NCBI GenBank assembly: GCA_963746105.1
Contig: CAVVAD010000002.1
Coordinates: 445,047 to 509,046, forward strand
Source of the DNA: an uncultured beta proteobacterium
Lineage (GTDB): Bacteria; Pseudomonadota; Gammaproteobacteria; Burkholderiales; Gallionellaceae
Direction of reading: 5' to 3'
DNA length: 64,000 nucleotides
This document shows, piece by piece, positions 60,239-62,930 of this stretch (positions within the stretch are counted from its first letter, which is position 1; every line of letters starts with the position of its first letter). The notes under the pieces were generated by a model. That model was not told the DNA's origin. It ran no database searches and was given only the letters and a program-made list of their open reading frames with translations. The translations under genes and the position numbers were made by a program.

Positions 60239-60428
60239 CCGGCCTGCCCCGGATGAGTTATGATGAACCAGGTGCTGGAATCAATCGCGGCGTTCGCTTT
60301 TCCCGTGATCATGCTGTCGAGTCTGTTGGCGCGCCACAGCGTTTCCCGCGCTGTGGACACACCTCTCTACCAGCCAACTTGCAACTTGTAGCATAATTGG
60401 ATATCCGATCAATTCAAGTGAGTCACAT

Positions 60429-60767
60429 ATGAACTCTGCAAACGACTTGACCAGCAGGCAATGCAAGCCCAGTACGCCGGGCTCGCTTCCGCTATCAAAC
60501 TCCGAGGCGGACAAGCTGATGCGGCAACTCGAAGGCTGGAAACATTACGATCACCTTATCGGGAAGACTTACCATTTCAAGAATTACTACGAGACCATCG
60601 CATTCGTCAACGCCGTCGCATGGCTTTCACACGGCGAAGACCACCACCCGGAACTCACCGTCACCTATAACAGCTGCCAGGTCGAATATACCACCCACTC
60701 GATCCACGGCCTTTCTGAAAATGACTTCATCTGCGCTGCAAAAGTGGACGCGCTGTTCAAGATTTGA
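60429..60767 (+). CDS. phhB: Pterin-4-alpha-carbinolamine dehydratase
   Basis: FKNYYETIAFVN, EDHHPEL, THSIHGLSENDFICAAKVD. Confidence 0.93.
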   Translation: MNSANDLTSRQCKPSTPGSLPLSNSEADKLMRQLEGWKHYDHLIGKTYHFKNYYETIAFVNAVAWLSHGEDHHPELTVTYNSCQVEYTTHSIHGLSENDFICAAKVDALFKI

Positions 60768-61906
60768 GCGAGCTTTTGCACGGCCAGGTTATCGCCGCAT
60801 TCGGCCGCCAGTATCTGGTGCGGCTGGATGACGGCAGCGCAATAGCCTGCCTGACGCGCGGCAAAAAAAGTGAAGTGGCCTGCGGCGATCTGGTGGAAGT
60901 CAAACGCACCGCAGCAGCCACATCCGCAAATGACACAGGCGCACAGGGCGTAATCGAACATATCGCACCGCGCCACTCGCTGCTGCATCGCTCGGATGCG
61001 TTCCGCGAAAAACTCATCGCCGCCAACGTCACCCAGATCATCGTCGTAGTCGCCGCCGAACCTTCGTTCAGCGACGAACTGCTGGCACGTTGTCTGGTCG
61101 CGGCTTTCGATCAGAAACTCGAGGTGCTGATCGTGCTGAACAAATGCGACCTGCCCGATGCCGCAGCCGCCGCGCGCAAACGGCTGATCCCCTATTCCGC
61201 CATCGGCTATCGCGTGCTGGAACTCAGTGCCAAAAATCCTACCAGCCCCTCCGGGCTGGAAAATGCTGAACAACCTGCCCGTCGTAAACTGGAGGGACGA
61301 TTGCCGCCTGTCCCCGAAGGGGGGAGGATTGTGGAGGGGGTGGATGCCCTGCGCCCATTCCTGATTGGCCACACCAGCGTGCTGGTTGGGCAATCCGGCA
61401 TGGGCAAATCCACGCTGATCAATGCGCTGCTGCCCGATGCACAGGCCGCCACCCGTGAGATATCCGCGGTGCTGGATTCCGGCAAGCACACCACCACCCA
61501 CGCGAGGCTGTACCGGATTGATGATGGCGCGGCTGCGACACGTTACCGCGAAGCGGCCGATTGCACCCGCAAGGAGTACGCCGGCGGGTACCCGGCAGCT
61601 TCGCTGCCACCCTACCGCAACGTGAACAGCCGCCAGACACCCATCCCTCACCAGGAGGCTCCGCCACACCGTGTCGGGGTGTCCGGATTAATCGACTGCC
61701 CCGGTGTGCAAGCCTTCGGCCTGCATCACCTGAGCTTCGGCGGGATAGAACAGGGCTTTGTGGAATTCGCGCAGTATCTCGGCCAGTGCCGCTTTCACGA
61801 CTGCCGCCACGCGCATGAACCCGGCTGCGCGCTGCGCGCTGCGGTTGCACAAGGAAAGATCGCTGCGCGCAGGCTGGAGCTGTTCCGGCAGATCGCCGGC
61901 AAGTAG
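60764..61906 (+). CDS. rsgA: Ribosome small subunit-dependent GTPase RsgA carrying two in-frame insertions
   Basis: TTG start; AANVTQ, VLNKCDL, GQSGMGKSTLIN, GKHTTT, IDCPG, C-terminal CRFHDCRHAHEPGC zinc site. Confidence 0.96.
   Translation: MSELLHGQVIAAFGRQYLVRLDDGSAIACLTRGKKSEVACGDLVEVKRTAAATSANDTGAQGVIEHIAPRHSLLHRSDAFREKLIAANVTQIIVVVAAEPSFSDELLARCLVAAFDQKLEVLIVLNKCDLPDAAAAARKRLIPYSAIGYRVLELSAKNPTSPSGLENAEQPARRKLEGRLPPVPEGGRIVEGVDALRPFLIGHTSVLVGQSGMGKSTLINALLPDAQAATREISAVLDSGKHTTTHARLYRIDDGAAATRYREAADCTRKEYAGGYPAASLPPYRNVNSRQTPIPHQEAPPHRVGVSGLIDCPGVQAFGLHHLSFGGIEQGFVEFAQYLGQCRFHDCRHAHEPGCALRAAVAQGKIAARRLELFRQIAGK
61235..61330 (+). repeat. 96-bp inverted-repeat-bounded in-frame insert 1 in rsgA
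   Basis: Left AATCCTACCAGCCCCTCCGGG vs right CCCCGAAGGGGGGAGGATT; encodes NPTSPSG...PEGGRI. Confidence 0.7.
61526..61678 (+). repeat. In-frame insert 2 in rsgA (about 50 aa), homologous to the MITE internal module
   Basis: GCGGCTGCGACACGTTAC (61529-61546) is the exact reverse complement of GTAACGTGTCGCAGCCGC at 62101-62118 and 62296-62313. Confidence 0.8.
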
Positions 61907-61925
61907 CCGCTCAATATTTGTTTAG

Positions 61926-62389
61926 GGAACCTCTGATTAAGTCCCACATGGCCGCGCACTCGGTTTTGCGGGATGGGATGCAAGGCGCGCGAGGCAGCGA
62001 ATGGTTGATCCCCTTCGTGAGCAGCCCTGACACGGGGCGGCGCAGCCGTGCGGTGCGGGAAGGGCTGCCAGCGGCTGCTCCCGCAACCGGCTGCTACGGA
62101 GTAACGTGTCGCAGCCGCAGTGCAACGCAGCAGACCGCCCGCAAAACCAGTGCCCACAGGGGTTGCGACAAAATCGCGCGCTCGCGGCGTTGTGCTCCTC
62201 GGCATCGTAGTCCCGGCTGCCGCCATGACACGGTGCGCGTAGCGTCGGTGCGGGAGTGGCGGCAGGCGGCTGCTCCCGCAAGCGGCTGCTACGCAGTAAC
62301 GTGTCGCAGCCGCTACCTTCGTCGCACGCCTTGCGATCATCGCGATTTTGTCAGCAACGCGGCTCATGGAGGACTTAATCAGAGGTTCC
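61926..62389. mobile_element. 464-bp non-autonomous IS5-like MITE
   Basis: Perfect 19-bp TIRs GGAACCTCTGATTAAGTCC / GGACTTAATCAGAGGTTCC; 4-bp TTAG direct repeats at 61922-61925 and 62390-62393; no transposase. Confidence 0.9.
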
Positions 62390-62930
62390 TTAGTCCCAAC
62401 TGCCGCCAACCCTGGTGCCCCAGCTTGTTCAGCGTCTCGACATTGTTGTCGGCGATCTGTTCGGCATCCGGAAAAGCCGCCACGGCGCGATCCACACTTG
62501 TTTCGCGCAGCAAGTGCAGCGTGGGGTAAGGCGAACGGTTGGTGTAATTCTCGATGTCTTCCGGCGCGGTGCCGGTGAACTGATACTGTGGATGCAGGCT
62601 GGCAACCTGGAATGCGTCTTTGAATTCCGGTTCTGCCACCGCAAGATCGACCGTGTCCAGAAAATCGTTGAAATCGAGGAAGTCGGTCAGCACATGGGGA
62701 TGGATCAGCAACGTGGTCTCGACCTTGTCGGGATCGGCATGTTGCAGCGCACGCAGCTCTGTCATCAAATCCTCCAGCAAGGCCTCGGGCGTGGTTGCCG
62801 CGCTGACCGCATAGCGTATCTGCTTCCTGACATGCACCGCTTTGGCAAAGGGGCAGAGGTTCAGGCCGATCACGGCTTTTTCCAGCCAATGTTGCGTGAC
62901 GGCGATGACGGTTTCGGCTTCGGTCAGCAT
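62379..62930 (-). CDS. DUF1415 family protein (stop codon supplied by the MITE end)
   Basis: WLEKAVIGLNLCPFAK, ETTLLIHP, FLDFNDFL, QVASLHP, YTNRSPYPTLHLLRE. Confidence 0.9.
   Translation of the reverse strand: MLTEAETVIAVTQHWLEKAVIGLNLCPFAKAVHVRKQIRYAVSAATTPEALLEDLMTELRALQHADPDKVETTLLIHPHVLTDFLDFNDFLDTVDLAVAEPEFKDAFQVASLHPQYQFTGTAPEDIENYTNRSPYPTLHLLRETSVDRAVAAFPDAEQIADNNVETLNKLGHQGWRQLGLRNL

Follow-up and report, generated by a model that had tools for sequence, protein, structure and literature searches.

A 153-nucleotide (nt), 51-codon insert in rsgA, the gene for ribosome small-subunit-dependent GTPase A, is best explained as a tolerated, nested, in-frame insertion of selfish repeats, a reading to which we assign a probability of about 0.8. 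The gene lies in a 64,000-nt stretch of DNA, here called the window, from an uncultured member of the Gallionellaceae (assembly GCA_963746105.1, contig CAVVAD010000002.1, positions 445,047 to 509,046), and the insert in question is referred to below as insert 2. According to this reading, a module of about 96 nt landed in frame at the hairpin turn between the G2 and G3 motifs of rsgA. A 57-nt repeat of a second family later nested in the module, and certain relatives have, nested there as well, a 60-nt repeat that belongs to a third family. The 51 extra residues would lie in a surface loop and would not destroy function; outside the insert, the gene is under strong purifying selection. The repeats may spread through a hairpin-recognising enzyme supplied in trans, by a single-strand mechanism resembling that of IS200/IS605 elements or of repetitive extragenic palindromes (REPs) and their RAYT proteins. 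A preliminary description of this DNA had presented insert 2 as an expanded, inverted copy of a module in a neighbouring MITE (miniature inverted-repeat transposable element), with which it might pair at the RNA level. That interpretation is partly supported: its structural reading was right, and the evidence lends no support to a functional partnership between insert and element.

The features on which the argument turns are the following.

60764-61906, plus strand: rsgA, the host gene of the insert; an open reading frame (ORF) of 380 amino acids.
61529-61681, plus strand: the full extent of insert 2, an in-frame segment of 51 codons (A256-V306; 153 nt); delimited by comparison of empty, 96-nt and 153-nt alleles.
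61529-61564, plus strand: 5' part of the 96-nt module, comprising the 18-mer GCGGCTGCGACACGTTAC, the P2 hairpin CCGC-GAA-GCGG and CCGATTGC; delimited by allele comparison.
61565-61621, plus strand: nested 57-nt repeat of a different family (ACCCGCAAGGAGTAC...CCGCAAC), between GATTGC and GGGAGC; exact boundaries given by locus L113.
61622-61681, plus strand: 3' part of the module, comprising GTGAAC, AGCCGCC and then the conserved core CCCTCACC..CACCGTGTC between stem arms X (AGACACCC) and X' (GGGGTG); delimited by allele comparison.

Position of insert 2 in RsgA

Judged by its sequence, the host protein is an ordinary RsgA. The Pfam family PF03193 (RsgA_GTPase) matches it at E=2.9e-45, solved RsgA chains in the PDB match it at E values of about 5e-47 (5no2_Z at E=5.4e-47, in three aligned stretches), and the motifs NKCD, GQSGMGKS, HTTT and DCPG are invariant across an alignment of 37 RsgA sequences (alignment A1). 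Homologue lengths range from 295 to 394 amino acids. The window protein aligns throughout with RsgA/YjeQ, the circularly permuted GTPase of E. coli (5no2, 5uz4, 2ykr), including the OB fold, the motif order G4-G1-G2-G3 and the C-terminal zinc-binding region, but it is longer by 51 residues at the hairpin turn from G2 to G3 and by about 33 ahead of G1.

Between HTTTHARLYRIDD and GLIDCPG the window protein has 53 residues, where insert-free homologues have 2-4 (RIDENSGLIDC); close relatives of 295-298 amino acids in alignment A1 lack both insert 2 and the more upstream insert 1. In the alignment to chain 5no2_Z, its residues 228 and 230 pair with query residues 255 and 308, and E. coli RsgA has about one residue where the window protein has 52. 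The insert thus occupies the turn of a beta-hairpin, between the strand after G2 (HTTT.ARLY) and the strand leading into G3 (D.PG), and the module is flanked by codons for RIDD-G and S-GLIDC. An insert of about 50 residues before GLIDCPG, between switch I and G3, had been noted, and both its size (53 residues present, a net 153 nt or 51 codons) and its location are confirmed, the latter by the alignment to E. coli RsgA. The coordinates proposed for it, 61526-61678, have the correct length; the boundaries in the sequence are 61529-61681, which is equivalent within the ambiguity of the junction.

Layers of insert 2

The rsgA site exists in several states. The empty site reads ...GATGAG AAC AGC GGC CTG... 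(locus L002), a 96-nt form is present in L001, L003, L010, L026, L098 and L116, and the 153-nt form is present in the window and in L113, L114 and L115. In L113 the extra 57 nt lie exactly between the GATTGC and the GGGAGC of the 96-nt form (in the window the latter has mutated to GTGAAC), and the "expansion" that had been recognised in this inverted copy is therefore a discrete nested insertion, at 61565-61621. The segment 61529-61564 is identical at 36 of 36 positions in six other rsgA alleles, of which L001, L003 and L113 were found by protein similarity and L010, L026 and L098 through the 18-mer. A further 60-nt element is nested in the 3' half of the module in L115. One homologue, P0032, keeps a 10-residue remnant of the module only (DAAS...PHPVGVS; A1 columns 360-432); this looks like an internal deletion, as if loss of the insert were not always clean.

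The 18-mer GCGGCTGCGACACGTTAC occurs at 61529 on the plus strand and at 62101 and 62296 on the minus strand, three matches where 0.08 are expected, and none of 100 shuffles reached three. The exact 18-nt reverse-complement match to both modules of the neighbouring element, for which comparison with shuffled controls had been set beforehand as the refutation test, is thus highly significant and stands. When the 57 nt are removed, what is left (96 nt) can be aligned over its full length with each of the two neighbouring modules in reverse complement (78 of 100 and 75 of 98 columns identical), and the local scores of 84 and 87 compare with 17.7 ± 2.9 (maximum 32) in 2000 dinucleotide shuffles. 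The complementary arms of the insert and the downstream modules extend to 36 nt at 86-89%. A second match, of 19 in 23 nt at the 3' end, was recovered by hand alignment between GGCTCCGCCACACCGTGTCGGGG (61657-61679) and the reverse complement of 62025-62047; the interval originally given for the latter, 62024-62046, is off by one and yields 7 of 23.

All of the layers (96, 57 and 60 nt) are divisible by three. The consensus of the 57-nt element contains a TAG that would be an in-frame stop in the rsgA frame, and all rsgA copies read TAC or TAT at this position; because of this, the insert appears to be translated, into a peptide that includes the stretch AAATRYREAADC...HRVGV. The sequencing runs that hold the locus are all DNA metagenomes, with no RNA sequencing run among them.

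Because large inserts in conserved GTPases are unusual, we considered whether insert 2 might be an intron or intein that is removed before the protein functions, or an artefact of assembly. Either is extremely improbable. No Rfam family, introns included, matches 60700-62600 at E <= 1. An intein of 51 amino acids would be too short (130 or more are expected), and the peptide has no terminal Cys/Ser/Thr...His-Asn signature. Layers in multiples of three and a purged stop would not be needed in a segment that is spliced out. The same long form is found in the independent assemblies L113, L114 and L115, and a metagenome contig is identical to the window over 61469-61712, with no differences.

A module family in the Gallionellaceae

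The 18-mer was found in at least 109 loci, nearly all of them from Gallionella, Sideroxydans, Ferrigenium or other Gallionellaceae, with several loci per genome; the scan covered one genome per species, and copy numbers are lower bounds. The loci represent about 40 distinct places of insertion, and 118 module sites among them fall in 46 flank classes. The module is found in intergenic DNA, inside the ~470-bp element next to rsgA, and in frame in genes. The few 18-mer matches in unrelated phyla share nothing beyond the 18-mer and were set aside as chance matches, and the remaining 61 kb of the window contain no other module copies.

A conserved 55-nt 5' domain and a 3' domain can be distinguished in 63 distinct canonical copies analysed with RNAalifold. 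In the 5' domain, stem P1, formed by GCGGCTG at the start of the module and CAGCCGC in CCGATTGCGGGAGCAGCCGC, encloses hairpin P2; both are conserved in the 63 copies, and the P2 stem covaries (CTGGC/GCCAG, CTGC/GCAG, CCGC/GCGG, CTGAC/GTCAG). The 3' domain consists of a conserved core, CCCTCCCGCACC...CACCGTGTC, closed by a variable 7-bp stem. Any one position of this stem can be a CG, UA, AU or GC pair, depending on the copy, and pairing is kept in 50-63 of the 63 copies. The dominant pairings are internal, and the ends of the module show only a short imperfect inverted match, GCGGCTGCGACACG against CGTGTC.GGC.GC. Copying of the variable 3' stem arm from the target site was rejected as an origin for it, the empty rsgA site having no similarity to the arm. 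Wobble pairing was dropped as a clue to the RNA strand, because most of the C-A/U-G cases trace back to a single orthologous locus that had been counted repeatedly.

The two nested repeats are families in their own right. Nine further copies of the 57-nt element occur in the fetched loci and give the consensus ...GGAGTAGGCCGG... / ...AAGGAGTAGGCCGG..., in which GTAG is followed by a GC-rich palindrome (GTAGGCCGG...CCGGC). The 60-66-nt element gave 23 matches, 17 of them within modules, and many module copies carry it immediately after GTTACTG. At one intergenic orthologous site, upstream of a Proton_antipo_M (PF00361) gene and conserved in about 15 genomes (L048, L052, L089, L080, L050), a 57-nt copy lies about 100-270 nt from a module copy; there the two families are neighbours and are not nested.

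Several features point to mobilisation in trans by a hairpin-recognising enzyme: the stems covary, no target-site duplication can be seen, the presence/absence alleles are clean, and the 57-nt repeat has a REP-like head of GTAG plus palindrome. The difference between the empty and the filled rsgA site is exactly 96 nt, and no target-site duplication is visible, at a site so diverged that one of 1-2 nt is possible. Neither a GTAG nor a CGTC head is present in the 96-nt module.

Tandem arrays were also seen, in which the unit is the 55-nt 5' domain of the module plus about 57 nt of other, near-identical sequence. They occupy 7579-8000 in L073 (period 112 nt, at least four units) and 1-270 in L109 (period 109 nt), and run past the ends of the loci. 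An identity as CRISPR was rejected, the units being too alike for spacers, and integron attC sites were dismissed on architecture.

In-frame copies in other genes

The module is in frame in at least 12 housekeeping genes besides rsgA, where it interrupts Pfam domains or is flanked by them. Only Pfam-confirmed genes were counted, because a GC content of 70% leaves many frames open and makes raw counts of spanning ORFs unreliable: half of the module copies are open in five of six frames, against 14% of shuffles. The in-gene copies occur in both orientations and use at least five of the six possible reading frames. The genes include:

PEP carboxylase: the Pfam profile is split at position 434.
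Anthranilate synthase I: module between its two domains.
Two Mur ligases: in-frame module.
RelA/SpoT: module in the HD domain.
Ham1/RdgB: seven orthologous loci.
Exonuclease III (ExoIII): seven loci, antisense orientation.
AMP-binding enzyme: in-frame module.
UbiH-like oxidoreductase: in-frame module.
GluRS-like protein: in-frame module.
Cu-oxidase_4 protein: in-frame module.
Mfd: in-frame module.

Relation to the neighbouring element

Downstream of rsgA, the window contains the following features.

61923-62392, no strand assigned: outer, MITE-like element of about 470 bp between the convergent genes rsgA and DUF1415, with terminal inverted repeats at 61923-61950 and 62365-62392 (28 nt, 89%).
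62021-62118, minus strand: module m1 of the outer element, carrying a minus-strand 18-mer.
62219-62314, minus strand: module m2 of the outer element, also carrying a minus-strand 18-mer; it shares 90% identity with m1 across 68 nt.
62379-62930, minus strand: DUF1415 gene, identified as an ORF and by Pfam.

The outer element has terminal inverted repeats and multiple copies, as classical MITEs do. Many genome bins of Gallionellaceae, L037, L058 and L088 among them, contain full-length or near-full-length copies, and the element itself must be multicopy because the m1 and m2 contexts are two of the largest flank classes of the module. Metagenome contigs of element variants (runs X2 and X3) skip exactly the 96 nt of m2 (62219-62314) and have ACG instead, and the module is therefore a separable 96-nt unit even within the outer element. 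A metagenome contig crosses the junction between rsgA and the element. At the other end, the DUF1415 protein terminates in ...GLRNL*, its last four or so codons and its TGA stop (62379-62381) lying within the right terminal repeat, while orthologues without the element end in GLDKL* or GLDSP*. The terminal repeat supplies the end of the gene; the insertion therefore rewrote the C-terminus of the protein, and its length stays at 183 amino acids.

The rsgA module is independent of this element. It is 93-95% identical to the rsgA modules of other genomes and 78-81% identical to m1 and m2, the family median being 82%. The rsgA copies share private variants, in the P2 hairpin (CCGC-GAA-GCGG) and in the stem arms (AGACACCCC/GGGGTGTC), and therefore descend from one insertion. 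The outer element is absent from L001, L003, L026 and L113, four distinct orthologous loci that have the same rsgA insert and in which DUF1415 still adjoins rsgA, with a gap of 5-71 nt. The adjacency in the window is therefore a later, lineage-specific arrival, and the outer element came to this place separately from the module and after it. These observations run counter to the special tie between insert and element that the preliminary description implied. Local duplication from the neighbouring element was likewise dismissed as the source of the insert, since m1 and m2 are no closer to it than the average family member.

The same comparison bears on the proposal that, in a read-through RNA, the insert pairs with the inverted modules of the element and so regulates the stability, processing or translation of rsgA mRNA. 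Pairing is, in the folding model, physically possible: the 36-nt arms are 86-89% complementary, the isolated 36-nt insert-module duplex has a predicted energy of -61 to -64 kcal/mol, and no terminator-like site was found between the rsgA stop and the element, the sole one found (62331-62345) being inside the element. When 61500-62400 was folded as one RNA, however, there were no insert-element pairs at minimum energy and 0.024 expected in the ensemble, against about 48 pairs within the insert. The outer element alone folds at -278 kcal/mol, and insert and element would each fold on themselves. Any two oppositely oriented copies of the family would be equally complementary, and the complementarity here is therefore a by-product of family membership. 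The element is missing beside four rsgA genes that have the insert, and m1 and m2 are no closer to the rsgA module than the average family member. Nothing in these models suggests selection for pairing, and we regard regulation by a read-through RNA as very improbable.

Evolutionary signature of the module

We compared codon positions in seven rsgA alleles that were found by protein similarity, and not through the 18-mer. In the RsgA core, 26, 22 and 77% of sites vary at codon positions 1, 2 and 3, a pattern of purifying selection on protein that suggests the insert-bearing rsgA genes are still functional. Unexpectedly, the corresponding values for the module are 35, 35 and 26% (position 3 against the core, Fisher p = 2e-8). 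Calculated for blocks of 12 codons, third-position identity is 0.94-0.98 within the insert; it is 0.60 immediately upstream and 0.73-0.78 immediately downstream. Blocks on the downstream side thereby reach the top of the range seen in the core, and a small effect on the flanks is possible. Amino-acid identity of the insert, 0.72-0.85, is lower than that of most neighbouring core blocks. Given the high third-position identity and the absence of coding periodicity, the insert is not evolving as a protein segment. We infer that the nucleotide sequence of the module is conserved and not the peptide, either through constraint at the DNA or RNA level or because the module is younger than its flanks as a result of short-patch recombination.

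Two other host genes behave similarly. Within nt 19-55 of the module, 1 of 11 third positions varies in Ham1/RdgB and 1 of 12 in ExoIII, compared with 77% and 72% in the host cores (p ~1e-5), in sets that were found via the exact 18-mer and so favour conserved copies.

These results make it improbable that insert 2 has been recruited as a protein loop which, from its place beside switch I and switch II, tunes GTPase activity or 30S binding. Such a role would suit the position between G2 and G3, the keeping of the frame in lineages whose core third positions are near saturation, and the removal of the would-be stop from the nested 57-nt element. The module nevertheless has no coding periodicity, its amino-acid identity is below that of most neighbouring core blocks in spite of a third-position identity of 0.94-0.98, and other genes read it in different frames and from the opposite strand. 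In addition, close relatives differ in the presence of the insert (the window and P0014; P0029 and P0058). Mapped on a neighbour-joining RsgA core tree, the insertion states show a patchy distribution, with differences between sister sequences for each of the inserts; this fits recombination between lineages or repeated clean loss.

A function at the nucleotide level is possible, if doubtful. On this view the sequence or fold of the module serves the host or the element itself, and the constraint persists in coding sequence. The presence/absence polymorphism indicates that the module is dispensable at any single site, its patchy distribution on the RsgA tree fits recombination, by which the insert could be younger than its flanks, and it has neither a match in Rfam nor a known binding partner. 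Third-position variability in the rsgA module is nonetheless about one third of that in the host gene, with third-position identity in the flanks well below that of the insert. Variability is likewise low in Ham1/RdgB and ExoIII, in a part of the module outside the search 18-mer, subject to the bias of the exact 18-mer search by which these two sets were obtained. The stems covary, and the rsgA copies keep their private variants, which argues against overwriting by other copies of the family. A more far-reaching proposal, that the 96-nt module is a functional motif of the nucleic acid (a structured DNA or RNA or a protein-binding site) selected across species even within essential coding sequences, such that a non-protein code overlaps the protein code of rsgA, Ham1, exonuclease III and others, we consider unlikely.

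Several points weigh against the preferred reading of insert 2 as a tolerated selfish repeat. The module has diverged less than passive decay of an insertion of the same age predicts, and a further process must act. Most copies were found via the exact 18-mer, and the sample is biased to well-conserved copies. Clustering of 1018 ORFs within 2.5 kb of module copies revealed no transposase or autonomous partner and no recurrent transposase-like cluster that could mark a parent insertion sequence, but only housekeeping orthologues and spurious ORFs inside repeats; because no transposase was found near the copies, we can only infer the mechanism of mobility. An AlphaFold model built from the close relatives in alignment A1 is poor (mean predicted local distance difference test score, pLDDT, 51; predicted template modelling score, pTM, 0.39). 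It is used here only for the remark that the insert blocks have the lowest confidence, and at a pLDDT of 51 it does not show insert 2 as an exposed loop. Finally, two features, the preserved frame and the change from TAG to TAY, are what indicate that the insert is translated.

Other variable regions of RsgA and its neighbourhood

Insert 2 is one of at least three polymorphic insertion sites in the homologue alignment A1. A second lies upstream in the window gene:

61235-61339, plus strand: insert 1 of RsgA, 35 amino acids (NPTSPSGL...RIVEG), a second in-frame presence/absence polymorphism, from alignment A1.

The alignment to PDB chains is interrupted at query residues 160-191, the position of insert 1. 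Among the fetched loci, its DNA matches only rsgA orthologues. Nested additions lengthen it by 18 amino acids in P0030 and by 8 amino acids in P0036 and P0039.

A further site, site A (A1 columns 106-133, after window residue ~57, ~60930), carries a 28-amino-acid insert, TGPSTKLITSDLAAVVGQPSRMASGSIR, in P0014 and P0106 and shorter inserts of 8-16 amino acids in further homologues; the window has no insert there. Part of the 28-amino-acid insert is the 60-66-nt family translated antisense, and antisense translation of this element yields the peptide ITSDL..SRMAS.SI, which is found at site A and, in P0030, nested within insert 1. N-terminal extensions of RsgA homologues also vary, from 4 to 43 amino acids (A1 columns 1-48), with recurrent types that include SVEGSANSTTRGERGSQRS and SEPFD.ASEKLLAGHPQD; they may reflect different choices of start codon in annotation or more insertions upstream.

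In L001, L002, L003 and L114, a cytochrome c gene of about 106 amino acids (Cytochrome_CBB3) lies between the genes for an M48 peptidase and pterin-4a-carbinolamine dehydratase. The window lacks it and has only a 190-nt gap at 60239-60428.

Comparison with known systems

REPs are by definition extragenic, and REP/RAYT and IS200/IS605 systems share a single-strand mechanism of mobilisation. The repeats described here resemble both in their hairpin-based identity, in having no visible target-site duplication and in their clean presence/absence alleles, and the 57-nt nested consensus has a REP-like GTAG followed by a GC-rich palindrome. The module differs from REPs in being longer, in having two domains and in lacking a GTAG head, and no RAYT or TnpA gene was found among the ORFs within 2.5 kb of module copies. 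GTAG- or CGTC-tagged REPs, IS200/IS605-derived palindrome-associated elements, are treated in PMC3733652.

Intragenic MITEs, exemplified by Coxiella QMITE1/2 (PMC5896051) and by intragenic ERIC elements and Anabaena MITEs (cited in PMC10969869), are likewise non-autonomous repeats that sometimes create in-frame fusions or supply C-termini and stops, as the outer element does for DUF1415. Theirs are mostly at the ends of genes or in hypothetical genes, whereas the 96-nt module lies mid-domain in conserved enzymes and has neither clear long terminal inverted repeats nor a clear target-site duplication. The intragenic MITEs of Coxiella and enterobacteria are weaker parallels, and the closest counterpart by analogy is the system of palindromic elements in Rickettsia (RPEs; Ogata et al. 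2000 Science 290:347), described in PMC10969869 as repeats of about 150 bp that are in frame in many metabolic genes.

Like the RPEs, the module is multicopy within a clade, hairpin-forming and in frame in unrelated conserved genes, and these are properties of an RPE-like class. Both systems consist of small (~100-150 bp) dispersed repeats, in several families and each within one bacterial clade; both add tens of residues to unrelated housekeeping genes that are kept, and both are also found in intergenic DNA. The likeness is one of functional class, and kinship in sequence is not expected given the composition and the hosts, Rickettsia being reduced, AT-rich, intracellular alphaproteobacteria. 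The Gallionellaceae module is, in addition, used in several frames and both orientations, up to three families nest at the single rsgA site, and orthologous copies are more conserved than the synonymous sites of their hosts. This last feature raises the question of whether selection at the DNA or RNA level or short-patch recombination between lineages is responsible.

In the searchable literature we found no description of such repeats in Gallionellaceae. They account for the strong variation in length of RsgA and other proteins among Gallionellaceae genome bins, and annotators should be warned that such inserts are real and are not assembly errors. One loop of a conserved GTPase, probably at the surface, can accommodate as many as three stacked families of small repeats, and Rickettsia-style in-frame selfish repeats in housekeeping genes would now extend to free-living, GC-rich, iron-oxidising betaproteobacteria.

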